DNA from: Saccostrea echinata
Taxonomy: Eukaryota
Direction of reading: 5' to 3'
NCBI RefSeq assembly: GCF_033153115.1
Contig: NW_026889761.1
Location: 17,794,001-17,858,000, forward strand
Length of the DNA: 64,000 nt
Shown here one piece after another: positions 1-50,255 of the stretch. Positions within the stretch are counted from its first letter, which is position 1. Each line of letters opens with the position of its first letter. The translations under genes and the position numbers were made by a program. The notes beneath the pieces are model-generated. The model saw only the letters and a program-made list of their open reading frames with translations. It was not told where the DNA came from and did not search any database.

Positions 1-1900
1 AAAATACCATCAATGTTGTCCAAAAACAAGACAGTATCTATTTTCAAAAATAAATATGTCTTAAATTTAGTACAAGCAGGATGCCTAAATACAAAAATTA
101 CATTCACAAATAAAAATCTCTTCCAAAAAATGTGTACCCGATTTTTCTTCATTAAATCTCTTTATAACCAATTTCTGTAAATGCCTCAAATCGTTATCCC
201 CTATTTCATCGTCTGCCGTGTGATCCATGGATAAAAATGGCAACCTCTCTCCAAATTTGGTCAATGTGTTGCGTATTAAATCGCGAAGAGTTGTCTCTTC
301 TCTGTGTATAAATCACACTAATGAATGAGCTGTACATGTACACATATAAACAATCTGAATCGCCTCGGTAATGAAATCCGCCGCTTTACCTTAAATCTAC
401 TTTAAACACATTCCATTTGTCTTCCATGTAGAGACGACGACATACCTCCACCGCCAAACTTGTTTTTCCCATCCCACCCATACCGCATATTAGAAGTCCT
501 GAAGAAAAAATTCAGATTGATATCACATACGTTTGATACTAATGTAAATCATGTACTGTATCAGTAAATCAGTACGGTACCAATTTTGATGCACCAGATG
601 CGCATTTCGACAAATTACGTCTCTTCAGTGATGCTCATGCCGAAAGGTTGGAAATCCAATATATTTAAATAAAAAAGACTTTGAAGAGCTGAAAAAAGTG
701 CCAAAGACTGGAGCCATATACGTCGAAGGATTAGAGCTATGCATGAGGGAGATAATCCTTAATTTTGAAATAAATTTTTAATTTTTATCACAGTAATTGA
801 ATTTATATCCGTATTTTTAAACTAGTACCGAAGTACTAGGCTACTGGGCTGTAGAGATGCTAGGGGACAAACAGTCCACCAGCAGAGGCCTCGACCCAGG
901 GGTCATAATGTAAATCATACACGGTACCAATTTTGATGCACCAGATGCACAAATTACGTCTCTTCAATATCAATGACTAGAATAATTTGTAGCTACACAG
1001 TTACATGCAGATTTATATATGTATTTGTAGTTTGGGTAGAACATGTATTTGCGAACTAGAATATAAAGATATACAATGGAGTCTCGTTCATCCGGACTCC
1101 AATATAAACCCGGACGCTTCACCCTCTGGACCTTGTGGGGAACAAATATATATACTATATGCATTTTTCACTCAATTTAATGTCATATTCTTTCAATTTA
1201 TCTATGTATTGGCGAAGATCGTCGGCGACTTTAGTTGAACCATCATCAACATGAAGACTAACTTCTTCGGTCAGATTGATGAGGAATTCGACTACATGAA
1301 AATGTTCCCCAAAACTATTTTCAAGGGTCTGGAAAAATTGTTCTCCATTCTAAAAATAGAAAGAATTACAAGAAATAGTTTTTGTTGTTTTACAAAACAA
1401 ATCATACAATGTGTACCTCATATTATATTTGGAAATTATCGCCTCAATTCATTTCACCAACTCAAAATCTTGAAAGACTGTTGTAGTGTGCAATGGGTAA
1501 GGCATTGCCGGTAGCAACTTATATTTATTGTGTATTCACCAACATTTTAACCACACGCACTTGAGAAATAAAAATGTAAATATATTTAATATCCTGTTAT
1601 TTTGAGCAAAGAAAATGGCATATGAAAACTACTCGGTAAATAACATGTATATGAGATATTTATGTGTATGTCTTTCATACATTCTATGTTCAATATTAAT
1701 AGTTTAGTCATATATATCCCCTACATAGTATACATGATTAAATCATATCTGACCTTGACTTCTTGTCCCAGTTTAGCAGTGGATAAGGCAAAGAATTCTC
1801 GTTCTATGTCCTTGTCTGTATTGATGACCTCAATGAGACAATTTTTAATTCCATCCCAGGACTCTAGCGGCTGGTTCAAACCCCGTCTTAGACTCTGCAT
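1..1900 (-). CDS. NLR-like paralog B (DED-like + NB-ARC), 5' part; continues off the left edge; exon 2 truncated (possible pseudogene or DED-only isoform)
   Basis: Exons read by hand. 1900-1754 MQSLRRGLNQPLESWDGIKNCLIEVINTDKDIEREFFALSTAKLGQEVK (147 nt, same length and phase as paralog A exon 1). 1349-~1155 NGEQFFQTLENSFGEHFHVVEFLINLTEEVSLHVDDGSTKVADDLRQYIDKLKEYDIKLSEKCI* (TAG 1157-1155). 498-390 LLICGMGGMGKTSLAVEVCRRL (Walker A). 301-138 EETTLRDLIRNTL...KRFNEEKS. 37-<1 TVLFLDNIDGI (Walker B). Intact junctions are GT-AG with the same phases as paralog A; the exon 2 donor is unresolved. Confidence 0.85.
541..966 (-). mobile_element. Retrozyme-like element: ~347-nt unit with terminal direct repeat carrying a hammerhead ribozyme
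   Basis: The segment aatgtaaatcat..cggtaccaattttgatgcaccagatgc..caaattacgtctcttca occurs at ~541-626 and ~907-966 (gcacca at 591 and 938). The intact HHR is in the first copy; the second copy lacks gcatttcg. Confidence 0.8.
591..634 (-). ncRNA. Minimal type I hammerhead ribozyme
   Basis: Minus strand reads GCAUCA CUGAAGA GAC-guaauuu-GUC GAAA UGCGCA UC^ UGGUGC: stem I GCAUCA/UGGUGC, full catalytic core, stem II GAC/GUC, palindromic stem III AUGCGCAU, AUC cleavage triplet (cut between 597 and 596). Confidence 0.85.
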
Positions 1901-3507
1901 TACGTCAATCTTGATAATGTTACGTAAGCTATCCTGTTGAGGAACCTAAAATAGGACGATGAGATATAAATATATCTTAAATTGAGTTACAATCTGCGTA
2001 AGTAATTTTTGAAATAAGTTCAATGAATAACAAAGTATAAAACACTTGCTTTTATTATCCAATGTCCTTCTTTACATTTCTCTTTTTGTAGGTAAAAAAA
2101 ACTGCAATCGATTAACTCTTATAAACGAAACCTTTATACAGTGACTGGTTAAAATTTTCCTGTTTATTTTGAAAGCCACAAATCGGCAAGTACAAGCATT
2201 TTAAAAACAGCTTAATAATATGTACCATGTATTTAGAAAAAGGGCACTTCACTAAACAATCCATAGATTTATGTTATATGACACTTCCTCAGTAACGATA
2301 TACTTTATTATAGGCATTTAAATTCCAGGTTGAATAATACTTAAAAACACCGTAAAACTACAAATAACTAACGTAATGCAAACAAGATTTCAACATCATT
2401 TTTTTCCCATTTTTTTTTTATTTTTGAAGTAGTGGAAAAGAAAAAGATTACTGATATTCTACTTCGGTAATTAATTACATAAATACCTTGTAATCCTGCA
2501 GATTTTCTTTGCTAAATGTAGATACACTGCGGTGCATGCATAGACTAAAGGATATGTGCAAAACTTTGCATCGGTCCTATCTGGAAATGGACACTTTCCA
2601 AACCTACAAAAACCCTCTTCATTGAGCTAAGTATACGTTATCTCCTTTAAAATATTTGTCGTGCTAAAAACATATAAGTATCGACAGGATATTGTCCCTT
2701 ACAATATCTACAACACTCGTTTTCAACAACGTTTATCATTATAAAATGACACTACATACATTTTAACATGAAAATAGATCCCTTTTTAGGAGTATAATTC
2801 AACCATCACTTTATATTTTTTTGACACGCTATTTATCAATCACAATTACATTAGATATCATATGATACCTGTTCAGTAATAGCTAGTAGAACTTTAAAAA
2901 AAGTCCTAGAATAATTCAAGTTAGTTTAAAATAAATCGTTTCATTCGCGTAAGACAGTATCTACTTTGCTTTAATTATAATTAATTATAGACTGCATTCA
3001 ATCTCTGTGTCCTGTGGTCATTGAGAAGTCAAAAATCTAAAACGTTAACAGAGAGACAGGTGAAACAAAAACAAAGTATGATCGGAAAAGGCTCACGAGA
3101 GCCTTTGGTTCTGGTGAGTTATAAACAAACAGTGCACAAAAAACTAAAAATCTTTTATGTAATTTATTGCTACAAAAAGAAGTTTGAAATCCGTAATGGA
3201 GCATGGCATATAAAAGTATTATTAAAATCAACAATGAAAATGTTACACTCCTTTCATATCTTTCATCTGTAAATTTTTACTCATATCACAGACGGTAGAT
3301 CATTATTGATCCGAATAAAATCAAAGAAAAGAAACAAACTGGTGTGCAGTTGGAAGATAGGCATTTGAAAAAAATCACAAAAACATTCAATAATTGAAAA
3401 GCAATTAACACATACAATAAAGAGTTAACTTTGCAATTAACCGAACTGAATGATTGTTCGATAGTTTTGGGATAACCTACTCAAAAGCGGATGTTAGCGA
3501 AAATATT

Positions 3508-4419
3508 CTAATATGCATTGTTAGGACCCATGCATTGAATATTTTCATCAAAACCTTTTTGTCTTTTTAATGTACATGTGTTATGCCTGTCCGAAGATGA
3601 CCTCTTTTTAAGAAAATTGAAATGATTCAAGACACTTTTTTCACAAGAAGAGAATACATCTTCCTCCATTGACCCTGAGGGTATGAACGACAGCCTCGGT
3701 TTCGAATCAGAATCTGTCAAAGAGGGGAAACTCGTGATGGAATCTCCCATACCACTGTCTATAGACCCGCTGTGAAGGCTGCTTTCTGGCTTTCGTGTAC
3801 TTATAACGTTCATTGTTTCATCAGAATTTGTAACGCCCACACTTTCTGTGCATCCATCAAAACTCAGTGTTCTATCATCACATCTTTTAATAACTGAGAT
3901 TTCCTCCTCGGATGTTATACTGAGAAATGAAGATTCAGAGTCGGATGATGGCGAATCAGACCCTTCATTGCTTTGATCAGTTGAAAATGAAGAAAGTTCA
4001 TTGTCTAGGTCCATACTTTGATTACGGAGGATTTTCTTGTTAAGTTTTCCAGCTTCAAAATCCTGTTTGCATAAAAAAGAACTAACATATATTGTACTGG
4101 ACATCAAACGATCAAAAGTCATAATATGTATTCAATTTGGATATCATTAGTTAATATTATTTATACCTTGTAGAAATATGGTCTTACCAGATAGAAGCCA
4201 TTCACTTGTTCAATTTCCCTCTGATCCTTATTCAGTTGTCTTAAAACTATCTTGTGATTCTTCTTTATTTGATCGTAAAGAATTTTGTTCTTCTGCCAGT
4301 TGAAAAATCCTCCTTGTTCAATCTGTCTTTGAATCTCCTTGTAGTTAGCATCAGCTCTGGCAAGGAAAGATGCTGCCTCTGTCGCTTTATACAGTAAAAA
4401 AAAATAATAGATAAGTGAA

Positions 4420-4508
<89 letters not shown>

Positions 4509-7500
4509 GTGTGTAATATAAAAAAAGTTAATATACAATACGTACAAGGCTCCCTTAATTTCAACAAGTGCGTTGCTTTCTGGACGAACAGGGAACTTAT
4601 ATCTTGGTAGGACGATATCAGATTTATATGGGGTGGATGTACATATTGTTTCCATATATTCAAACTTTCTTGTAAATCTTTTTCCGAAGCTTCGAATTTC
4701 CCTTGTAAAAGGTAAAGTTTGCCCCTCATTTTAAGAATTTTGGCTCTTTTTTCCGCTCTTGCTGTTTCCATAGAAAGAGCAGTATTATAGTAAATCTCTG
4801 CTTCTTGTAAGGCATCCTCACGTAGACGGTCTTGATCCCACTCCTTTAAGAATGCACTTCCTATGTTAGTCAGGAAAATGTCTTTATCGATGAAATCATC
4901 GTGTTCTCTTTCGACTGTTGTGAGAGCTCTTGAGTGGTATTCTCTCGCAGTTTTATATTCCTTGGATTTAAAGGCAATAACTCCCATTAAATTGTAAATA
5001 TTTGCAATCTGTGACCAACAGTCCCTTTCCTTTTTCATTGTTGTACATAATGCCATTTCAAGGTACTGTTTGGCTTCACCGTAATTTTCAAGCATGCTTA
5101 GATAACGAGCATGCATAGTCCAGAACCCACCAAGAATCAATGCAGAAGGGTAATCCTTAACCCTTCGTTTGTTTTTCACATAATTAGCTGCTTTTGAGAG
5201 TTGTTCATGTTCAATTATTGTAGAATCAATTTCGGTCAAAATTCTTTGGCAGCTCTCCATTCTTTCATTATCAAAATAAAGTTTTGCCAGACAAGTTTTA
5301 TAATAAACAAGGTCTAATACCTTGTCATCTTCTTCAGCGTTAGAAATCATATTTTTATAATATTGACATCGGCGAGTGGTGTCCAAAATCAGATCCGTTA
5401 ACCATTCAGTATTGACAACACTTAATGCACTGGGGAGATCTCTTAAATTAGGTTTAGGATTTGTATGTAAATCCATGACATATTCGTAGAAAGTGTGAAA
5501 ATGAGGTTCGTATTTGGCAATGGTCCTTAGCGATTCAGCAGAAGCCATTTTTGCCGTTTTTGAGACAGTTTTGTAGATATACTCGACATATCTTTCCCTT
5601 GCATTGTTAACAAGGACTTGATATTGTGCCTCCTTGGATTTTAAGAATTGATAAACTAGTGGATGAATATAATAGCATTTTGATGAATATGCTTTTTGTG
5701 AAGACTTTTCTTTTATAATTTGATCATTTGACTCTGATTTAAATAAAGTTCCGATGGATGATTCTAGGAAATGATATCGTTTCAAATAGACGATCTCCCA
5801 TTCCATGCTTGCCTTTCCTGAATTTGTGCTTCTACCACAAACAAACTTTGCAGCCTCGATATCAAACTTTATTGTTCGAAAAACAAACAGTTGCATAAGG
5901 GTGCACGTTATTTTATTTTGTTTACCCGATTTGTCAAGCACTGAGAAGGATTGTTGTAGACAAGACTCTATTCCAATGATATTGTTTTGAATTGCAGAGT
6001 TGGTGCACAGTGAAAAGGTTTCTGTTAGTTTACTCGGAGATATGTCCTTTAATACACTGCTAAGAGAAAGCATGGCCAATGGACAGTACGAACAGATGGA
6101 TGCCATCTTCTTTATGTCTTCCTCTTTCTGGATAAAAAGTAGAAATAACAGTCATCAGTGTATGATATTTTCAAATTAAATCTTATTTCTGTTAATAAAT
6201 TTATGGATCAATTAAATCATTACTACAATTAATTAATTATTTTTTATTCATTATTCTTTACACAGTAAGTTGTACTAACACATTGTATATTTTGCTGGGT
6301 CAACTCCTGCTTGAAAAGTGTTATCGCATGTTGCTCAGAAAGCTCTTGAAGTTTAATTTCGACGAAGACTTCTCGAAGAATCCGAGCTTTCTCGGTTGAC
6401 GGGAGACTTGGACGAGAGGTTATTAAAACCCTTGTCTAAAAGATAAAAGTTTGAAAAAAAAACCCTTTCAGAACAAATAAACTTATTATTTCATCCTATT
6501 CAGAAAAAGGAATAAAAATTATCAGAAGTAAATATATACGTTATTCTCTCTATAAAGGCATATTTAAAAGCAAATCACGTCAAGAAATATCATAAATGTA
6601 AATTATATGACTCATTACCTTCCCTTGATGCATTTCATCCTCCTCGGCTTCAATAAGCATATTTACCAATTTATTTAGAAAGCTAATAACGTCTCCCTCA
6701 TTACTCGCTAAAATGTCATCCATATTGTCTAAAAGGAACACTTTATTCTGCTCTGCAAAAAATTAAGTCTCAATTTGTTATTCATTTGGACATAGTTTTG
6801 GTTTTTCGTCATGATGTCATCTTGATTTACAATAATAAGATATACATTTCTGTGTGCTCTTGTGTGTAGCAAGAATTGCTTTCATTGTCTCAAATTTATT
6901 TAATTATTCAATTCGCATAAAAAGTAACAAATCAAGCATACTTAATATAGAGTAAATAGTAGAGAAATTGATTATTATTGTTATTTTGGGATTGTTACAA
7001 TTTACCTGAGCTTTCACAACATCTTTTAATCAAAAGATGTCTCCGTGAATCTTGATTAATATCTTCAAAATAGTCCTCCTCATCTAATTTACTTGCGGAC
7101 TCCAAGTCTCCATCTGATAATTCTTCTCTATTTGACGTCATCAACAATTCTCCAAGCAGAATGAGTGCACTTCTAACGAGATCTCGCACGTGTTTCTGTT
7201 CCCTTGTAAATAAGACTTACAATGAATCACTTTAAATTTTTATTTTAATATCCCAAACCCCTTTCAGACATAGATTTATTCAAGTCTCATAGTTTGGTAG
7301 ACAGATGAAATAAAATGGTAAGAATGTTTTTGCCTCAGAAAAAAAATGAGGATACATGGAGTTACCTCACACGATATAGTTCACTTAATTTCAAGTATAA
7401 AAGTATAAAAACTAAAAACTTAAATGTTTCATTAAAATGAACATTGACTGAAATGACACTTTCGTTTACTATAGTCAGATAGTTCTGGGTGTAAACACAA

Positions 7501-8834
7501 CGTAAAACAAATAAGTGCATTAAAATCACAAATTAAATTATTAAGGTAGGACATCTTTCTATAACTCACTCATGATAGCAATTAAACAAGTTAACAGTAT
7601 GCAATTCTTTGCGGCAACTAGTACCTTAATTCGACTTTTAGGATCCTCCAATTTGCTGTTTCTCCTGACAACCTCCTACAAACTTCGTCAGCAACACTGG
7701 TTTTCCCCATTCCACCCAATCCGCAAATCCACACACCTACAATAAACAATATTTACACACTGATTGTCGATGGATTTTTCGGTTATTTCCCGATCATGAC
7801 AAGGAGCATACGGTGGGTGAAACCGGTCGGCAGGGAATGCTCACTCCTCCAGGGCACCTAATCCCACCTCTGATGTCTTAGAGGTCCGTGTTTGCAATGC
7901 TCCTATTTTGTAATGTTAAATGGACTTTTTAGCCCGAATACTGTTCGTTACCTCCACATATTTCATTGAAGTCAGAAATAACAGATCCACATGTCACAAG
8001 TAACAAGTGAAAATAAAAAATACAAATTCCAGCATACATTGATATATACTTCACCTTTACTTTGCTGATTTTGGAGAGAATCCATGGCTTTTTGTATCTC
8101 CTCTTCTCTCCCAATGAGGTCACATTTACTCCAGATTTTCAATTGCTTCATTTTCTCGTCGTTCTTCCTGCGTTGCTCTGTGTATTCTTTTAGAATTGAG
8201 GGCAAGGAGGTTGTGCCCTCATCCAAATGCAGTTTTGTTTCTGTTGTTAAGTGGATCAAAAACTCGACGACAGCATCCCTTTTATGTTCGAAATGCCCAT
8301 CTAAAGCCTCGAAATAGCTTATACCGTCCTGTACAATATCGACAGACAAAAATTTTTAAAATGTTTTCAAAATTACTTTTTTTTTTTTTTTTTTTGAAAG
8401 TACAGATTTCTCGACTCTGACCTTGTGTATCATGTGCAACTTTTAAAATTTGTATGATAGCATTAAAGAAGAACAATTTAAATATATCGTGTACAATGAA
8501 TTTTCATATCTTCAACATGATGTTTTCAAAAAAATCAAAAAACAAAATACTCGAGGTTGTATTCCTCCATTGTACTTTCATCAACAAATAATGAGTTAAC
8601 AGAAGACTTCAAATGAAATTTTGCAACATTGTTTACAAACAAAATTCTACTGAAAACTTTTGAAATAATATTTTTAAACTTTCTTACCGTAACTTTGCCA
8701 GTCTTAGATTGTGACAGTTGAAAAAGTTCACGCCGTGTTACATTATCGGAGTCTATCACATCAATCAGGGTCAACCGGAACTTGTCCCAGGGGTCGATCT
8801 GGGTCATATTAGGTCCAACGTTCTCAGAGAACAT
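3508..8834 (-). CDS. NLR-like STAND protein A: DED-like death fold - NB-ARC - TPR - Ser-rich tail (~1117 aa, 9 exons)
   Basis: Exons 8834-8688, 8328-8055, 7736-7625, 7202-7006, 6752-6619, 6435-6280, 6127-4546, 4384-4188, 4062-3508; total 3354 nt, open frame, GT-AG. Motifs: LIGREEEI, Walker A GLGGMGKT (7722-7699), Walker B VFLLDNMDD, RVLITSR, LQELSEQHAITLF, YCPLA (GxP-like), IHPLV (MHD-like), and TPR helices such as IANIYNLMGVIAFKSKEYKTAREYHSRAL and RAKILKMRGKLYLLQGKFEASEKDLQESL. Confidence 0.9.
4423..4504. repeat. (TA)n microsatellite in intron 7 of NLR-like gene A
   Basis: About 41 TA units; explains the YIYIYI runs in the ORF track. Confidence 0.98.
7759..7966 (+). mobile_element. 3' tail fragment of a Penelope-like (Naiad-type) retroelement in NLR intron 2
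   Basis: cccgatcatgacaaggag..ggtcggcaggg..atgctcactcctcc..cacctaatcccacctctgatg..gaggtccgtgtttgc matches the tail that follows the RT relics at 16855-17030 and 54040-54200. Confidence 0.75.
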
Positions 8835-9166
8835 CTTTTCTCTTCCTCAATGTATTAGCATCTTTCTCATAGAGTCGTTTTTCTTCCTCTTTCCTGGGTG
8901 GTAGAACCACGTTAGTTAAGCTTTATCTGAACAGTACGTTTTGTAATCTTAATCAAAAGCCTTATGTCATCTACAGTCATCTGAATAACATCCTAGTTTT
9001 CGATTGGGTACACGGGAAAACAATAAGGAAAGGATTTATTTCCATTATTAGGTTCTCTGTCTCACTTATCTCTGTGCATTACAGGCACAGAAAGCAATGT
9101 GTGAATAAAATAATTTGTCAATTCAGTTGACCAGTGGAGTTGAAAATCCGCTCCCCTCATTTGTGC

Positions 9167-9190: not shown

Positions 9191-12100
9191 ATTTACGTCT
9201 AATGTGTTCTGAATAAAACAAATAGTTCAAAAGAACTCTACAATATCTACCCATTCTACTTGCTAGATAGAATATTCGCTTTCATCTTTAACCTTTACTC
9301 CATCTCCCCTCCCCCGCCATCCACATCCCAAAGCTTACAAATTTCCAAAGTGTTTTCATTTATTAGTGAATAAAAGAAAATACTCTACTTAATTTACAAA
9401 ATTTACGATAAATAACATGCAAGGTTTCAATTTGATATCTACAAAAGATTCAAAAGAAACTTTGGCTATACCATTTTATGAGATTAAAAAGTTGTTCATC
9501 ATCAGGGTTCCCGCTATCGAAATCTGGCAAGGTTTATTTCAGAACTGGTCAAAATTGTTCTCTGGCCCAGAAAATAAAATTATATATACTATACAATATT
9601 CATGTACATAATTTATTGAAACTACTAAGAACTCGTAGTTTGATCGTATGCACAGCATTCTTTAGATTCGTGTGGATTTTCTAATCACATGCATACAATG
9701 TAATAGTTTTTGGAATGAACAAGGTATTGATAACTACTGTCCTGCAATATTGCAACTGTTCACCCCCGTATAAACCAAGAAAGTATCTCATTGTTTAAAA
9801 ATTCCCCCTGTCATGCCAGGTTACATTACCTGATAAAAATGCAATGATAAACTGTTTTGAGTTTGTTTTGATGGCTGGAATATTATGTCAAAATCTGTGT
9901 AGTCCTCAAAAAAGGTCTAATGAGTGAAAACACACGCATAGGGATGGTCGAGAGAGATGTTTGTATATAATTTTCTTCATTTTTTGTATTCTTTTTACAA
10001 TGCATTGCCTTGAGTAATTTTCATATTTTGTATTTTTCAAACCAGGTGTTGTTGGCGTCTTACAATTTTGAAATTGTATGCATTTTTAATGTTTTTTATC
10101 TAAGTTGTATAATGGCTTCATTATTTTTTACACTTTATAAACGGGCTTATTTTATTGATAATTTGGATTCAAGAGAAAAGATTAAAATCCAATTACAGCA
10201 AAGGAAGCTCCGGAAAATTATTTATTATGCAATTTAACAGCACAATTAAATGAAAATTGTAATTTGCAGATAGAAATTACAAAATACGGTTGAAAATGAT
10301 TATACAATATAAAATCATCTAATATAAAAAAAATGTATTTTCATAACTAGAAGAAAAGATTAATAGTTGAATTGTTTTACATCAGCTCATCAAGAAAGAT
10401 CACATGCACAAAGACATTATTGAGAAAAAAAATGAAATTTGTCTTTGATTTTGCAATACCAGTTTGAACAAGTTTGGTTTGTCTCAGCTTAGGAATTCAA
10501 CTATCGATCCATTTGCCAGTCATGGTTAGATTTTCTTTTTTTTTTCAATTATGTAAATATATTTTTTTCCATTTCAAAGTGATTTTAAAAGCATTATAGT
10601 TTCTTCTTTTAACATAAATTTGAAAAACAAAAATGACAAAATTATCTATTTCCCATTTGCACTCTAAATTTAAGTAAGTTAAAAAAACGTTTTATGCGAG
10701 GAAAAATTGTTAGGTAACCGTAACGGTAGGTCGATATGCATAAAGTAACACCCAGATCAAAATAATGCAAATTAAAAATTGTATTTGTTACAACCACTTG
10801 TTACACTTGCAAATGAACAAGGCATTGTCTATACTTATATGATTTTATAATGTTAGAACGCACTGCTGAATGGTCTTGTGTTGGTTTTCTTTATATATAA
10901 AGGAGGACGCCATGATTTGATCATTATCTGAATTAGTATATCATGCCCTACTCGTACTTCATACTTAAAATGGTTTACACCAAATGCTGGGTCTTTTGTC
11001 ACTAAAGAATATATCATTAATTATGCATTATAAGATCATTAGGAAAGCATTGTATAATTTTTCATCTTTTTTTTTTTTATATTAAATCAAGGTTAGAATC
11101 AAGCAGGAACAAGTCAATTTTACGTTGCACTTGATCACACGTTACAACTTTTTAGATAACACATCGTGAATCGACATGTGTGTTTGTGACCTACATATAC
11201 TTAAATTTTTAAAAAGCTAGTATACTACGTTGTTTTTCAATTGTTTACACTTTTACACAGCTTAAATAAGTGACTGTCATTTTTTCTTAAATCTTAAATT
11301 CTTCACAAAGAACACATTCTTACCTAACTGTGATATTCTCCGGAGGACTTCCTTCTTCTGGACAGATATTTAATACAAACATGAAACATTACATGCATAG
11401 TGCATTGATTATCTGGCGGTCGACTGTTGACGATGACATCACAGCACTATTTTTTTTCTAGCCATTCAAGCATTTCAGGATATTTCTCCTGAGGTTTTCA
11501 AGTGGGCCCGCATTGGAAAAATGGGACCCTGGAAAAGCATTACGCTGGGTATTGGATCTAAGGATTCTATATTGGAAGGTTTGATCATGCTGTGAAAAGT
11601 GTTTTGAAGTTGAATTACATGTGTAATCTTTTTTCCAAAAAAAAAAAAAGAATCAAAAGATAAAACACCTTATTGTAATTTGTAGATTAAAAATCTGTAG
11701 GAATAAATGATAGGAGATTACTTGACAATTATACCGATGGCATTTTAATAGGAAAATATACGCTCCAGTACTATTTAATTGACGTAAGCTGCAATTGCAA
11801 TCAATGCTAGTATTTGCATTCAAGATCTTTTAAATCAATTATCCATAATAATGCTTCCAAAGATCCAGAATTAAGATACAAGAATAAAGTTACACGTACT
11901 TTTTAGTTGCAGTGAAACTTTGCATAATAAGACAGACTGAGTTTCCTGCAGAATACACCTGGAATCAATTCACTTGTAATTTACAGCTGTGTTGCATGTG
12001 TTTTGTGTTACTGTAGAAAACAAGGGAAACTCCGAACCTTTTACAAGCATGGCCATGAACTTTACGCTTACATATTTTTAACATTGAAATTAATTATTAT

Positions 12101-39400: not shown

Positions 39401-41214
39401 TCCTTTGAATTTCTCTTGTTCTCGTAAATATTAATAACACACATTCAACCAATGGAATAATAATCTGACACATCAAGTCAGAAACTTTTTGTCCAATGAA
39501 AATGATCTGTTTATTTTGTATTTGGATGTAACCATAACCATGAGATGTAACTCAACTTCGGTTGAAATTTCCTCAACTAAATGAGTGACGCTATTCAGTG
39601 TATTCAGACATCTGCATTTGAAACCCTGTCTTTAAATGTTAAGCTTTGTAAATATTTTAGAATATAAGTAACTTGCCTCTGTTCTTCAGGATGTATCATA
39701 TTTTTATTAATAAATCTGCCACACACAGCAACTATGAATTCATTATGAGCAATGCCATGTAAATGTACCCAAAAGTGCCACAGAGTGATTTCATTGGTCA
39801 AGATAAATCTGGTATCACTTGATTCAATGATGCAAGAACAAGAGAATTTTGTAGTGGACAGCCAAGGTTTTGTGAAAATAAAATGGACACAAATCCTGTG
39901 GCTTGTGATGATGAAAAATATGTTTTATACATGTATACCTCTTTATATAAGCTTTCACATTTGGTGGTCCTATCTGCAGGGAAGGATATTGTAGGCAGGG
40001 AGGAATTCAATGTGTTAATGATTCTATCATCAACCAATCTGTGCTTCTTCAGCTGTTCCTGAAAGTGTTTTAAATCATACTGGTCACATAAGTGTTTTAA
40101 ATCATACTGGTCATATACATACATATAATTTGTTAATTTAATTAACAAAATTAAGCAAATACTTCAAAATTAAAACACACTTATCTAAAATATTTCTGTT
40201 CTCTGTAACCACGTACACTTTTTGGCATACATGGTCACCTCTATATTCATTAATGATAGTGTCAAGAAAAACAATAAATATATATTTCATAATAAGAAGG
40301 TAATGGCACATTATTCTGAATATAACTTTCATGGTTGCAATGGTAACACAGTGTAGCCACATAAAATTTGTTGCTAAGTTATGATTTATGTTGCTATCTT
40401 AGGGAAAAACATGGAAAATCAACACTGCCAAATATACTGGTTTTATTTTTATGAATGAGGACAGAAATTTAAAATGTAAACAATGCAACTGTGTCCAGGC
40501 TGACGCCCCTTTAAAGTTAAGAAAGGCCAAAAAAATAATATAGTCTTGTTTCCTGCTGAAAAAATAGGGTAGGTAGGTGGGAAAATTATTTTATTTTATT
40601 TTTTTATTTTTTCCGATGGCATTTTTTTTTTTATATGAAATAATAAAAGATCAAATTAAACATGTCCAAGGTCAATATTGTCTTTAAAATTAAATTTCAT
40701 GTTTTTTGATGCACAACTCCATTGGTATTTTATGAAAGTCCATATTTAAAACAGAGAATTTCATGAAATGCTTGTTTTTGTGTTAACACAGAAACTGATT
40801 ACAGTGTTTATTTGTGATTATCTAACACTAAACTATGTCTTATGCAACCAAAAATAAATAAATATGTATATCATCTGATTTCCAAGATATAATTAAGAAT
40901 CTTTCACACAAATCAACCTTAGAGGTTACGAATATTTTTCTAAGGCTGTAGATGAATTAAAAATACATAATATTTTGAGTGAATATTTCTAAATGTAATA
41001 ACCTCTAGAGGAAATTCGAGTCTTACAAAACAATAACGACAAAAATGAAACATCCTTACATTTCTTAAATTAGCAAGAATGATACTTTTACAACTTTAAA
41101 AATCCATAGTAGGAAGCATATGTGGATATAATGTAACACTACCTGAAATGCTAAGAAATCGTCACATAAATCGCATGGTAGGTCATTTTCATGCTTGGCA
41201 CTGGAGGCAGCCAT
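36434..41214 (-). CDS. MIX23: Mitochondrial intermembrane space protein MIX23 (CCDC58), 151 aa
   Basis: Exons 41214-41143 (MAASS..CDDFLAFQ), 40058-39939 (EQLKKHRLVDDRIINTLNSSLPTISF..KCESLY), 38214-38068 (RETAIKSCV..LRKEQTK), 36993-36934 (LRLMQQELCVEEVVKDTSLK), 36490-36434 (AFQERCRQYYKPP*). All phase 0. Confidence 0.93.
37161..37342. mobile_element. Tc1/pogo-type MITE (TA TSD)
   Basis: ta|cagtcaaacctc..tatctcgaac ... gttcgagataccgaagttcaactg|ta; related remnants at ~49915-50040 and ~58794-58937. Confidence 0.75.
37477..37597. repeat. ~42-bp tandem repeat x3
   Basis: agataagaactaatgcatgtgttcacaac.tagctatacatt; a fourth copy sits at the MIX23 exon 3 donor (38029-38065). Confidence 0.85.
37882..37996. 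repeat. Palindromic hairpin element
   Basis: gaaagatgtagtct.ataactgcaacggtgt.tgcaaa / tttgca.acaccgttgcagttat.agactacatctttc. Confidence 0.8.
38729..39172. mobile_element. Non-autonomous element: IR-bounded segment plus terminal palindrome
   Basis: IR catacttagtaataaa (38729) / tttattactaagtatg (~39018); hairpin ~39034-39172 centred on gggccttcggccc; gggctgata repeated internally. Confidence 0.6.
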
Positions 41215-47000: not shown

Positions 47001-50000
47001 GAAACAAAATGCAATACAAGTTTGTCTGCTGAATATGTACACTTTGTGTAAAATTTACTTAGAAAATTACTAACATTCAGACTCACAGAATTGAAATTAA
47101 ATGTTCATTCTTAAAAGTTGGATAAAGTCAAAAATCATGCTTAAGGGTTTCAACCCTAAAGCTAGTGGGAGGACTTAAAATTTTGCACACTAATAGACCT
47201 AATTACATATCTATAAAAAGGAGTTAGGAATAAAGGTAGAGAAAACATGCATCGTAGATGTGAAATTTAAAGAAAAGTTGAAAAAGATTATGCTGATCTA
47301 TATTATGAAGCTTTGTAATAAACATGACATGATTTCAATATGAAAATTGCTATTTTTGTTTAAGAAGAGGAAATATTATTTAGATACTGTTGTACACTTA
47401 AGTGTTTTATTTTACAGATAGTACAAGATACAAGCATAAATACTTATTGTTCTTTTTATTGAATTGACAATTTAAGATTTTTTTTGTAGTGTGTCATTGA
47501 TGCCAATATATTTCCTGTTTTGATTGATATTCTGGGTAAAGCTGATTTTAAGACAAGGAAGGAGGCAGCATGGGCTATCACTAATGCCACATCAGGGGGG
47601 TCACCAGAGCAAATCAGGTAAAATATTGAAAACCACATGAATATAGAAATCTTGGTCAACCAGGTAAAGCTCTGGTCAGTCAAATATTATAGAAATCTAT
47701 ATAAAATACATGTAGGTAAATGATGAAAACCAGGTCATTCATTTGAATATTATAGAAACTATGTCATTAAGGTAAAGATCAGAATATGGTCAGTCAAGTA
47801 AATAAAGAAATCTAGGTCAATGAGATAAATATAGAGAAACAGGTCAGGTAGGTAAATACAGTCAACTACTGTACAGCAGGAAATTAACTCGCGGAGTTAA
47901 TATTCACTATATTCGCGGAAATAAAAATTCCGCGAATTCAACATACAGTGAATAATTCTTCAAAAATTGATAAGGATAAATTGAAATATTACCAATATCT
48001 GTGATTAGATACGTTAACTCTATTTGCGTTTCCTTGCAAACATAAAAGCAGTAATTAATATATAGCGGAGATGTAGACACGTAGTTGTTGTTTTTTTTAA
48101 GCTTAATTGATAAATAAACATCCATAACTAACATTTAATTCTGCCAACCAGTAGAGGTGCGATGTAATTATCTATGAAACATGTATTGTTAGATTTCACT
48201 CATGCATATCACTTGGTCTTATTATCTTTAATCAAGGCACTTACGTAGTAAAGACAACACTGTTACACATTAATTCAATTTTATTAACAGTTCAACATTT
48301 TGACTATCGGTACTGACAACTGATCTAGATTCAGGGGGATATAAATATACTGCAGTAAATACTACTCTGTACTCTACTCAAAACATACCTATGAACGAAC
48401 ACCTGCCAAAGGGCTTCATTTTTTTTTTTACATGTATGTTTTGGATACGACTGGAAATCACTTGAATAAATCACTCGAGAATAAACTCATATGTATTTCA
48501 AAAATATTTAATAAAAAGAAAGAAAGAAGAAAATTTATCTGAATGCGTAACCTGTAAATCGTACAACATTTTGTCTTCTAATCGGGATAAGTATGGTGTT
48601 TATTTCTATTTAATCGGGTTCAGAATCGACACAATACGCAAGGAAAATATTTGCAGTGCTGAAAAAGTTTTTGCATAATTTTTCCTTTCCGCGAATTCAA
48701 TCGACCGCGATTTGCTGCAAGTTGAACAAATCACGATCTTTTCCGACCGCGATTTTAACCTGCTGTACAGTATTTGTAGTGTTTGAGAGCCTAAGTTAGC
48801 CCCATGATCCACACAAAACAACTGATTTCAAAGTAAAGACATTTTTGATTGCATCCCACGTGAAATTAATGTAAGGACATTTTGATGCCTGCTGTTATGG
48901 TACAGACATATTTAAAATAATCTTTTTTCAGTGTTTTCATTTTGAGGACTAAGCATATCTTACTTTGACCTGTTCGGATTTTTCCTGTAGGTTTTTGGTA
49001 GACCAGGACTGTATCCCTCCTCTGTGTGATTTACTGACAGTGATGGATGCTAAGATTGTACAGGTGGCTCTTAATGGTTTGGAAAATATTCTACGACTTG
49101 GAGAGCAGGACGCTAAAAATCACAATGGCACAAATCCATATGCTGTTTTAATTGAGGAATGTTATGGTAAGGATTATCCAGATAATCTCTGGAAGTCTTT
49201 AATTTATCCCTGATGACAGCTTAAACATGCACGCACCTTAATTTAAATTAATTTATAAAGTTATTAATGCTTTACAATTTAATGTCAAAAGACTGAGTAG
49301 AAATCACAATTATGATGATTTTAAATTTTAATGTCTCGTTTTCTGTTGGTATTGGAGAAATTCCAAATTTTTTTGGTATTTTGGCAATAGAAAGTGTAGT
49401 TCACACATAACCTTATGGTTATTGTGGTATTATTTTACACATAGCACAAAACATCTCCAGAAGATATGTGGACACCTTCACTCAATAAATAAAGGTTAAA
49501 ATTTTTTGGATGTCATGGTTTTTTAGAACACCTGAGTCTTAGGCTCAGATTAGTCTAAGGCTCAGGTGAGTGTTGTGGCACATTGGCCTCTTCTTCACTC
49601 ACGTCTGAAAATATGACAAACTGACAACATAAATTTCAGTCAGAATAATAAATATTGCAACTTTTCGAATTTTGTACAAAGAAGCAAACTTTAGAAATAA
49701 ATTTGAATAAAAACCGTATGTGCTTTAAAAAGTTCATTTGAATTGTACAGTGAATATGAAATTCATAAAATTAATGAACATCTGTGAAAAGAGATTTATT
49801 TTTGTTATTTAAGAAAATGAATATTTCTCTTTCTGATTAACTTTTCTTATATAAACCAATGAATTTATTCTAAAATTAAAGTTGAGTTCTTCTTGAAGAA
49901 CTAACATTTATAGTACAGCCAAACCTTGTTATTCGATGGGACTAAAATTTGTAGATCTCTGAGGATTCGAGATATCAGTGGTTGGGACTTCCAAATCACT

Positions 50001-50255
50001 TCAACATATCCATGGTATTCAAGATATCAGTGTTTGAGATACCTTTTTCCTCTGTATGTAGGTTTAGACAAGATAGAATTTCTACAAAGTCACCAGAACA
50101 GAGAAATCTACCAAAAAGCTTTCGACATGATTGAGCGATATTTTGGAACGGAGGAGGAGGATAAAGCTGTTGCCCCTCAGCTGGATGAAAACGCTCAGCA
50201 GTATGAATTTAACGCACCTGCTGAAAATGTTCCCATGGGCGGTTTCCAGTTCTAG
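41799..50255 (+). CDS. KPNA6: Importin subunit alpha, alpha-1 clade (KPNA1/KPNA5/KPNA6-like)
   Basis: 13 coding exons: 41799-41930 ([34 protein letters not shown]), 42483-42581, 44117-44213, 44509-44600, 44771-44902 ([13 protein letters not shown]), 45532-45620, 45921-46023, 46237-46400, 46612-46690, 46826-46951, 47490-47617, 48991-49166, 50062-50255 (PMGGFQF*). The symbol denotes the clade, not 1:1 orthology. Confidence 0.95.
42611..43599. mobile_element. Non-autonomous DNA transposon, TTAA TSD (Kolobok-like)
   Basis: ttaa|aggacttatcgcatg ... catgcgataagtcct|ttaa. Confidence 0.85.
47869..48770. mobile_element. Tc1/mariner-type MITE, TA TSD
   Basis: ta|ctgtacagcagg ... cctgctgtacag|ta; absent at the homologous site of the duplicate (~57665). 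Confidence 0.88.

Follow-up and report, generated by a model that had tools for sequence, protein, structure and literature searches.

The closest described relatives of the gene analysed here combine its parts in other ways. A STAND-TPR mechanism has been described for PH0952/MalT (PMC6468293), the APAF-1, CED-4 and Dark scaffolds join a death fold to NB-ARC, and in fungi NB-ARC is preferentially paired with TPRs (PMC4986451). NB-ARC combined with TPRs and with a DED or another death fold has been noted in Nematostella, amphioxus and sea urchin (PMC2246300), and death-fold/NB-ARC/TPR combinations in Acropora (PMC4083563) and Trichoplax (PMC6321704). Animal NLRs are defined by NACHT plus leucine-rich repeats, of which a survey of C. 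gigas counted just one true example (PMC3879445). APAF-1, moreover, is reportedly missing in molluscs, annelids and Lingula (PMC11463336, PMC10959488). Here we describe LOC133185449, a gene in a 64,000-nucleotide stretch of the Saccostrea echinata genome (‘the window’), which we are nearly certain encodes a protein of DED / NB-ARC / TPR architecture and which, on modelling and analogy, is likely an NLR-like intracellular switch. The preliminary description of the locus regarded this architecture as more familiar from fungi and bacteria, which is overstated given the coral, placozoan, amphioxus and Nematostella surveys: the architecture is not new to animals, and the new elements are the hairpin-bearing DED characterised below and the presence of such a platform in molluscs without APAF-1.

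LOC133185449 (RefSeq, uncharacterized, 1117 aa) is the exact translation of nine minus-strand exons running from 8834 to 3508, and its introns are GT-AG in 8/8 cases. Introns 1–6 are all joined at the predicted sites (6/6) by Logan contigs, each in two to four runs; contigs were mapped over 4520–9150, a stretch that covers introns 1–6, with introns 7 and 8 falling outside. The contigs derive from four public runs, made on no more than three samples in two studies, whose RNA status is the tool’s guess and which carry no expression level. In 4/4 runs pieces break at 4546/4547, the end of exon 7, and extend beyond; one contig continues for 895 letters, which would fit exons 8–9 (752) plus 143 letters of untranslated region (UTR). 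Alternative exon 7/8 splice choices and a donor at 4167 were rejected, since the chosen set alone equals the RefSeq protein. LOC133185449 is thus confirmed as a real, intact, spliced gene, in agreement with the 1117-aa spliced frame of the preliminary description. Its features, all on the minus strand, are as follows:

8847..8870, minus strand: upstream open reading frame (ORF) of 7 codons, in frame, its stop 4 codons ahead of the main ATG; paralog A2 keeps the same ORF
8688..8834, minus strand: exon 1 (residues 1–49), DED helices 1–2, Q39-L40 at the FL-motif position (8720–8715)
8055..8328, minus strand: exon 2 (residues 50–141), DED helices 4–6, linker and hhGRE motif
8229–8206, minus strand: within exon 2, the His83-x3-Gly87 hairpin, at the RxDL site
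7625..7736, minus strand: exon 3, Walker A GLGGMGKT (7722–7699) and RNBS-A
7006..7202, minus strand: exon 4, nucleotide-binding domain, with an acidic insert (residues 200–226) of low model confidence
6619..6752, minus strand: exon 5, Walker B VFLLDNMD (6741–6718)
6280..6435, minus strand: exon 6, sensor-1 TSR (6420–6412) and RNBS-C
4546..6127, minus strand: exon 7, HD1 with PLA (GxP equivalent), winged helix with IHPLV (MHD equivalent), arm and most of the TPR solenoid
4188..4384, minus strand: exon 8, last TPR-like helices; boundaries set by identity to the RefSeq protein
3508..4062, minus strand: exon 9, DFExG cap, disordered Ser/Asp/Glu-rich tail (residues 961–1117) and stop
11324..11420, minus strand: candidate 5' UTR exon (inferred), with a GTAAGA donor; conserved before A2, its size matching 97 unplaced letters of one contig

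The STAND motifs LIGREEE (hhGRE), GLGGMGKT, VFLLDNMD and LITSR are all present. Across 33 aligned family sequences the Walker A Lys and the Walker B Asp are invariant (33/33 each), and the sensor-1 Arg (28/32), HD1 Pro356 (32/33, YCPLA) and winged-helix His495 (31/31, IHPLV) are kept; the G of the textbook GxP and the D of the textbook MHD are not kept. Because the motif residues counted above are retained, we read the core, from sequence and model, as an intact NB-ARC-type STAND switch rather than a dead scaffold. A Pfam scan, as the preliminary description had proposed, finds the TPRs clearly (TPR_12 at E 6e-12, TPR_1 and TPR_10 above cut-off) and NB-ARC only marginally past its cut-off (23.6 versus 23.5 bits, with relatives reaching 55.8), while NACHT stays below its own (13.8 versus 26.7). 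The full-length AlphaFold model, built from a 52-row alignment (predicted local distance difference test score (pLDDT) 78, predicted template modelling score (pTM) 0.73), is confident over residues 14–960 save short loops and is disordered past 961. The proposed Foldseek search with this model returned PH0952 (6MFV) as the top match at E 9e-12, followed by NRC, Apaf-1 and CED-4 chains. VIA superposes residues 117–509 on the NRC1 NB-ARC at Z 25.7 (root-mean-square deviation (rmsd) 3.5 over 320 residues), the model on 6MFV at Z 24.8 (rmsd 7.7 over 597), and the C-terminal part on the TPR solenoids of APPBP2 and LGN at Z 24–26. By profile and predicted fold the core thus classes with NB-ARC rather than NACHT, and the NB-ARC-type STAND motifs and TPR sensor claimed earlier are borne out by Pfam, motif alignment and structural matches alike. 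Neither the Pfam scan nor the full-length model revealed a DNA-binding or enzymatic output domain.

PH0952, the best whole-model match, shares the NOD-arm-TPR order but is prokaryotic, is only 14–16% identical, and has neither a death-fold effector nor a disordered tail. APAF-1, CED-4 and Dark share the death fold plus NB-ARC, and their NOD superposes at Z 24; however, they carry a CARD instead of a DED, and WD40 repeats or no sensor instead of TPRs, and APAF-1 itself is reported lost in molluscs. With its predicted DED-type N-terminus, its TPRs and no WD40, LOC133185449 does not classify as an APAF-1 ortholog (CARD-NB-ARC-WD40), nor, with NB-ARC and TPRs read from its sequence, as a true animal NLR, hence our term NLR-like. 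Fungal NB-ARC-TPR NLRs have the tripartite layout in common with LOC133185449 but use HET, HeLo, PNP and other effectors, unlike its DED-type domain, and about one fifth of them carry near-identical, length-polymorphic repeats (85% over 100 aa) that it lacks.

Pfam DED (PF01335) has no match at E≤1 in the LOC133185449 protein or in two further proteins (P0002, P0003). A model of residues 1–112 (pLDDT 87) has five long helices (15–29; 31–40 with a four-residue continuation, 42–45; 51–61; 66–80; 91–111) and a hairpin. When this model was searched with VIA against 48,161 chains, ranks 1–6 were all DEDs (Z 9.1–9.7), with MC159, PEA-15 and vFLIP among the top structural matches and rmsd values of 2.7 over 85 residues for PEA-15 and 2.3 over 82 for FADD. 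Sequence evidence enters through the relatives: of 23 scanned, seven match Pfam DED at E≤0.01, two of them, from hemichordates, above cut-off (E 3e-15 and 1e-12), and a PDB search with one of the hemichordate proteins retrieves PEA-15 at E 2e-4. Scored with a profile of 24 other family N-termini, the two hemichordates reach 36 and 29 bits, as compared to at most 11.6 for 1500 shuffles and at most 8.8 for 656 helical windows. On the strength of the VIA ranks, the hemichordate Pfam matches and the profile scores, we take the N-terminus, by sequence and model, to be a DED by descent that has been remodelled.

Several results weigh against this assignment. A Z of about 9 is under the tool’s safe level for helical bundles; pyrin domains lie within one Z unit of the DEDs, the first clearly unrelated title appearing at rank 36 (Z 6.0). 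Foldseek found nothing at E≤0.001 for the N-terminal model, its best match being the PEA-15 DED at E 0.57, and an ESM Atlas search with residues 1–118 gave no usable match. The 24-sequence profile scores the host’s canonical DEDs at -0.3 to 6.4 bits, within noise, and a profile of ten short family N-termini lacking a Pfam DED match found no DED in the PDB. Because of these last two results, the sequence link to DEDs is transitive only. Of the DED-like N-terminus put forward in the preliminary description, the death fold stands, closest to DEDs in VIA, while the six helices do not, being replaced in the model by five long ones plus the hairpin; the N-terminal motifs it quoted and the missing RxDL are seen in the sequence.

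How far the domain has been remodelled is apparent from a comparison of 31 family rows with eight host DED rows (8 of 15 genome PF01335 matches, two being copies of a FADD-like gene). Between the FL leucine and the helix-4 aromatic the spacing is 14 in LOC133185449, 15 in Ostrea and 17 in C. gigas, as compared to 19 in 6/8 host rows and both hemichordates; in LOC133185449 the helix-3 segment is deleted (five residues short), and helix 3 is missing from the model. At the FL Phe position, where 8/8 host rows have F, Y or L, LOC133185449 has Gln (Q39-L40) and 9/10 pteriomorph rows (oyster, scallop, mussel, pearl-oyster) with a residue there have a polar one, although F38 lies one position ahead of Q39 and a register shift is possible. 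RxDL is absent at its site in 31/31 family rows, R-x-D being present in 7/8 host rows. Instead, 29/31 family rows carry an insertion at that site (spacing 19–24, versus 15 in the two hemichordates), in LOC133185449 six residues between helices 5 and 6, modelled as a β-hairpin (83–90). His83 (25/31) and Gly87 (24/28) are the most conserved N-terminal positions outside the core, and the His-x3-Gly hairpin insertion is common to the lophotrochozoan family members. LOC133185449 shares with FADD, caspase-8, cFLIP, PEA-15 and MC159 the predicted fold and, via the hemichordate members, descent; whereas canonical DEDs have helix 3, the FL Phe and RxDL, it lacks all three and has gained the helix 5–6 hairpin. 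Read along the family, these sequences record a stepwise rewiring of the death fold, from canonical hemichordate domains through the lophotrochozoan hairpin and the pteriomorph loss of FL to the loss of helix 3 in oysters. Intron 1 (8688/8328) of the A and B genes introduced below sits at the helix-3 deletion, a place where two older paralogs, at 18.97 and 19.00 Mb, are uninterrupted by an intron.

A search of 1.84 billion representatives yielded 253 matches at E≤0.001; relatives are named from 30 looked up among the 150 of these matches that were listed, 25 carrying animal names and five being unnamed or metagenomic. Among the matches listed, the bivalve relatives come from oysters, pearl oyster, scallops, mussels, Solemya, Mactra, Mercenaria, Mya and unionids, and the others from the chiton Liolophura, Lingula, the nemertean Lineus, two hemichordates and a Montipora cluster; two coral-type relatives (P0138, P0111) start at NB-ARC. 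In a quick tree of 58 rows (10 near-duplicates dropped from 68; support from the Shimodaira–Hasegawa-like approximate likelihood-ratio test (SH-aLRT) only), LOC133185449 groups with a C. gigas pair (99) and with an Ostrea B-type protein (98), deeper nodes lacking resolution; a bivalve plus Lingula clade (95) includes two rows that sit on long branches and whose origin is unknown. One class of paralogs, distinguished by long tails, is conserved across the bivalves. Acquisition from a bacterium or fungus by horizontal transfer is not supported, in an analysis without a dedicated test of it. A profile search for longer proteins joining the same DED to another effector returned, among 7997 candidates scored, only three Mytilus family members, and is too weak to exclude a cognate partner; the searches of the own genome covered exon 2, exon 7 and PF01335.

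No paper on the family was found in full text, six gene identifiers included, subscription journals and supplements being outside coverage, and the available passages of PMC8195603, PMC2575513 and the TeTIR preprint do not describe it. The Acropora, Trichoplax, amphioxus and Nematostella NB-ARC proteins have the same domain classes, and Montipora NB-ARC-TPR proteins are among the relatives; the invertebrate surveys name DED and TPR as options, but their available passages contain no DED-NB-ARC-TPR family, molluscan members, hairpin DED or tested function. LOC133185449 thus belongs to a lophotrochozoan-hemichordate DED / NB-ARC / TPR family, apparently undescribed, which Pfam-based surveys would miss because its DED is undetectable and its NB-ARC score marginal. 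The family provides concrete bivalve candidates, with an intact NB-ARC switch, for coupling intracellular sensing to death and, if an immune role is true, is relevant to oyster disease resistance. That it is an overlooked NB-ARC death platform of lophotrochozoans without APAF-1, a TPR-sensing ‘DED apoptosome’ whose hairpin DED would be a new, Pfam-invisible subtype with its own partner, linking intracellular sensing to bivalve cell death, is a conjecture that we consider doubtful as a whole.

LOC133185449 (A1) heads a head-to-tail array, A1-B1-A2-B2, of about 60 kb. The A+B unit was duplicated whole, with introns and flanks, leaving long blocks of 77–90% nucleotide identity; A and B proteins are about 31–36% identical. 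The nine exons of A2 form an open frame of 1120 aa (G000:C12:17770887-17763328), and B2 is open across the eight exons assembled. B1 is the sole broken copy of the four, with a truncated exon 2, two in-frame stops and one frameshift:

1..1900, minus strand: 5' part of the broken paralog B1 (exon 1 at 1900–1754, truncated exon 2 from 1349, exons 3–5), which runs out of the window

The two older paralogs (18.97 and 19.00 Mb) lie 1.2 Mb away, most of their exons being 78–95% identical to an S. cucullata protein of greater length. Tandem duplication in which one copy is a pseudogene fits the birth and death of receptor-type genes. Against a receptor role in immunity stand the modest number of copies in the genome (at least six), an A1 versus A2 ratio of nonsynonymous to synonymous substitution rates (dN/dS) of 0.36 (0.29–0.43) with no domain above 0.44, and a TPR value of 0.37, which makes the TPRs no faster than the rest of the protein's domains. 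This one pairwise comparison, by which single sites are undetectable, showed no positive selection on the TPRs, and no tandem repeats of the fungal hypervariable type occur in the coding exons (no period above 14 bases over 3400–9000). With a dN/dS of 0.36 and no hypervariable repeats, an immune function for LOC133185449 is at most putative.

By analogy with PH0952/MalT, Apaf-1 and plant NLRs, resting LOC133185449 would be an ADP-bound monomer shut by arm and TPR contacts; a ligand on the TPRs would cause opening and ATP exchange, and the opened protein would oligomerise and cluster its N-terminal domains. The clustered N-termini might then recruit a partner through their remodelled surface and not by imitating FADD. 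More tentatively, the ligand could signal infection or damage, and helix 1/4 together with the His83-Gly87 hairpin could form the output face, perhaps engaging in the first place the protein’s own copies or its paralogs and in the second a death-fold protein of the host. We give about an even chance to the whole chain being right, i.e. to clustered N-termini that signal, via a remodelled face made up of the hairpin and helix 1/4, in defence or in the sensing of damage.

The preliminary description had instead proposed direct coupling to FADD/caspase-8-type partners, and in this form the protein would nucleate FADD/caspase-8 chains and replace the APAF-1 reported missing from molluscs, annelids and Lingula. 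The DED fold and ancestry agree with this, as do the FADD-like, DED-DED-caspase and DED-DED-DD-caspase genes that the host genome carries on other contigs (labels by frame reading), the aromatic at the FL position in 4/31 family members and the finding that D74 of the RxDL motif of FADD is dispensable in human cells (PMC11074299). The same study, however, found F25 and the helix-3 surface residue K33 of human FADD to be needed for caspase-8 activation, and it is the FL Phe and helix 3 that are lost or changed in LOC133185449, with the insertion replacing RxDL, while the oyster’s own FADD and caspase-8 DEDs keep both. For this reason FADD-style nucleation of caspase-8 is disfavoured as judged from sequence, the helix 1/4 face remaining, and we regard direct chain nucleation as unlikely. 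Prediction of a complex between the N-terminal domain and the oyster FADD-like DED, with alignments not used, scored 0.00 and speaks neither for nor against binding. Having lost the FL donor but retained helix 1/4, the remodelled DED could also bind without extending chains, by the interface logic of PMC4558505 and PMC11074299, and would then be a nucleotide-gated decoy or brake capping FADD/caspase-8 chains like cFLIP, MC159 and PEA-15. MC159, PEA-15 and vFLIP are indeed among its best structural matches; as structural rank is no proof of function and a decoy would not need a full STAND core, we find this improbable.

A non-immune nucleotide switch, acting in the manner of MalT/AfsR as a stress, developmental or nuclear regulator whose tail controls turnover and nuclear import, strikes us as slightly less probable than direct chain nucleation. 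It would accord with the uniform purifying selection, the long-tailed class kept across bivalves, the rank of PEA-15, whose DED binds ERK2, as top Foldseek match, and two tail motifs on the minus strand, DSGMGDS (DSG-x3-S, 3759–3739) and a bipartite basic motif (3609–3556), both retained in S. echinata and C. gigas A-type tails that have otherwise diverged. The former may be a β-TrCP degron and the latter a nuclear signal. The degron-like motif occurs, however, in just 7/24 tails (1.2 expected), several of the seven being related, the protein has no DNA-binding or enzymatic output domain, and a STAND core with a death-fold N-terminus usually signals death or immunity. Duplication of the A+B unit as a whole, introns and flanks included, and the divergence of the A and B proteins could point to an obligate sensor/helper pair; yet the genes lie head-to-tail, both classes keep the P-loop, and B1 is broken while the adjoining A1 is intact and spliced, which makes such a pair very improbable. 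The preferred reading remains a switch that signals through its own remodelled face.

Further observations concern the contigs and the paralogs. In a contig of run X3, a loose end of exon 1 matches 2572–2601, as would be seen if the exon 1 donor (8688) were spliced on the minus strand to an AG acceptor at 2603; exons 2–9 would then be skipped, and the frame stops after seven further codons. A2-type letters occur inside A1-like contigs at 7665–7671 (exon 3) and 8055–8064 (exon 2/3 border), and are either gene-conversion mosaics or assembly chimeras formed via a shared stretch. The public A2 protein, LOC133186044 (760 aa), lacks the DED and most of NB-ARC and is probably a truncated gene model. 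Intron 2 contains, at 7756–7967, an interspersed repeat of about 210 bases with eight copies in 164 kb, very deep in public contigs, which we presume, by impression only, to be like a short interspersed nuclear element (SINE).

Elsewhere in the genome, one locus (L039, G000:C56:14677001-14687000) has exons that encode two DEDs, a segment resembling a death domain and a QACQG caspase; if these form one gene, its DED-DED-DD-caspase layout is unusual. A cysteine-rich TNFR-like exon (L038:4472-5014, G000:C25; label by eye) lies a few kb downstream of a caspase-8-like gene. The window also contains a coiled-coil exon followed by a C1q-domain exon (23309–24688, plus strand; PF00386, E 2e-19), an importin-alpha-type last exon (49914–50255, plus strand; Arm_3, E 1e-17) and an ORF without a Pfam match at 0.001 (39798–40163, minus strand), which presumably resembles CCDC58/MIX23.

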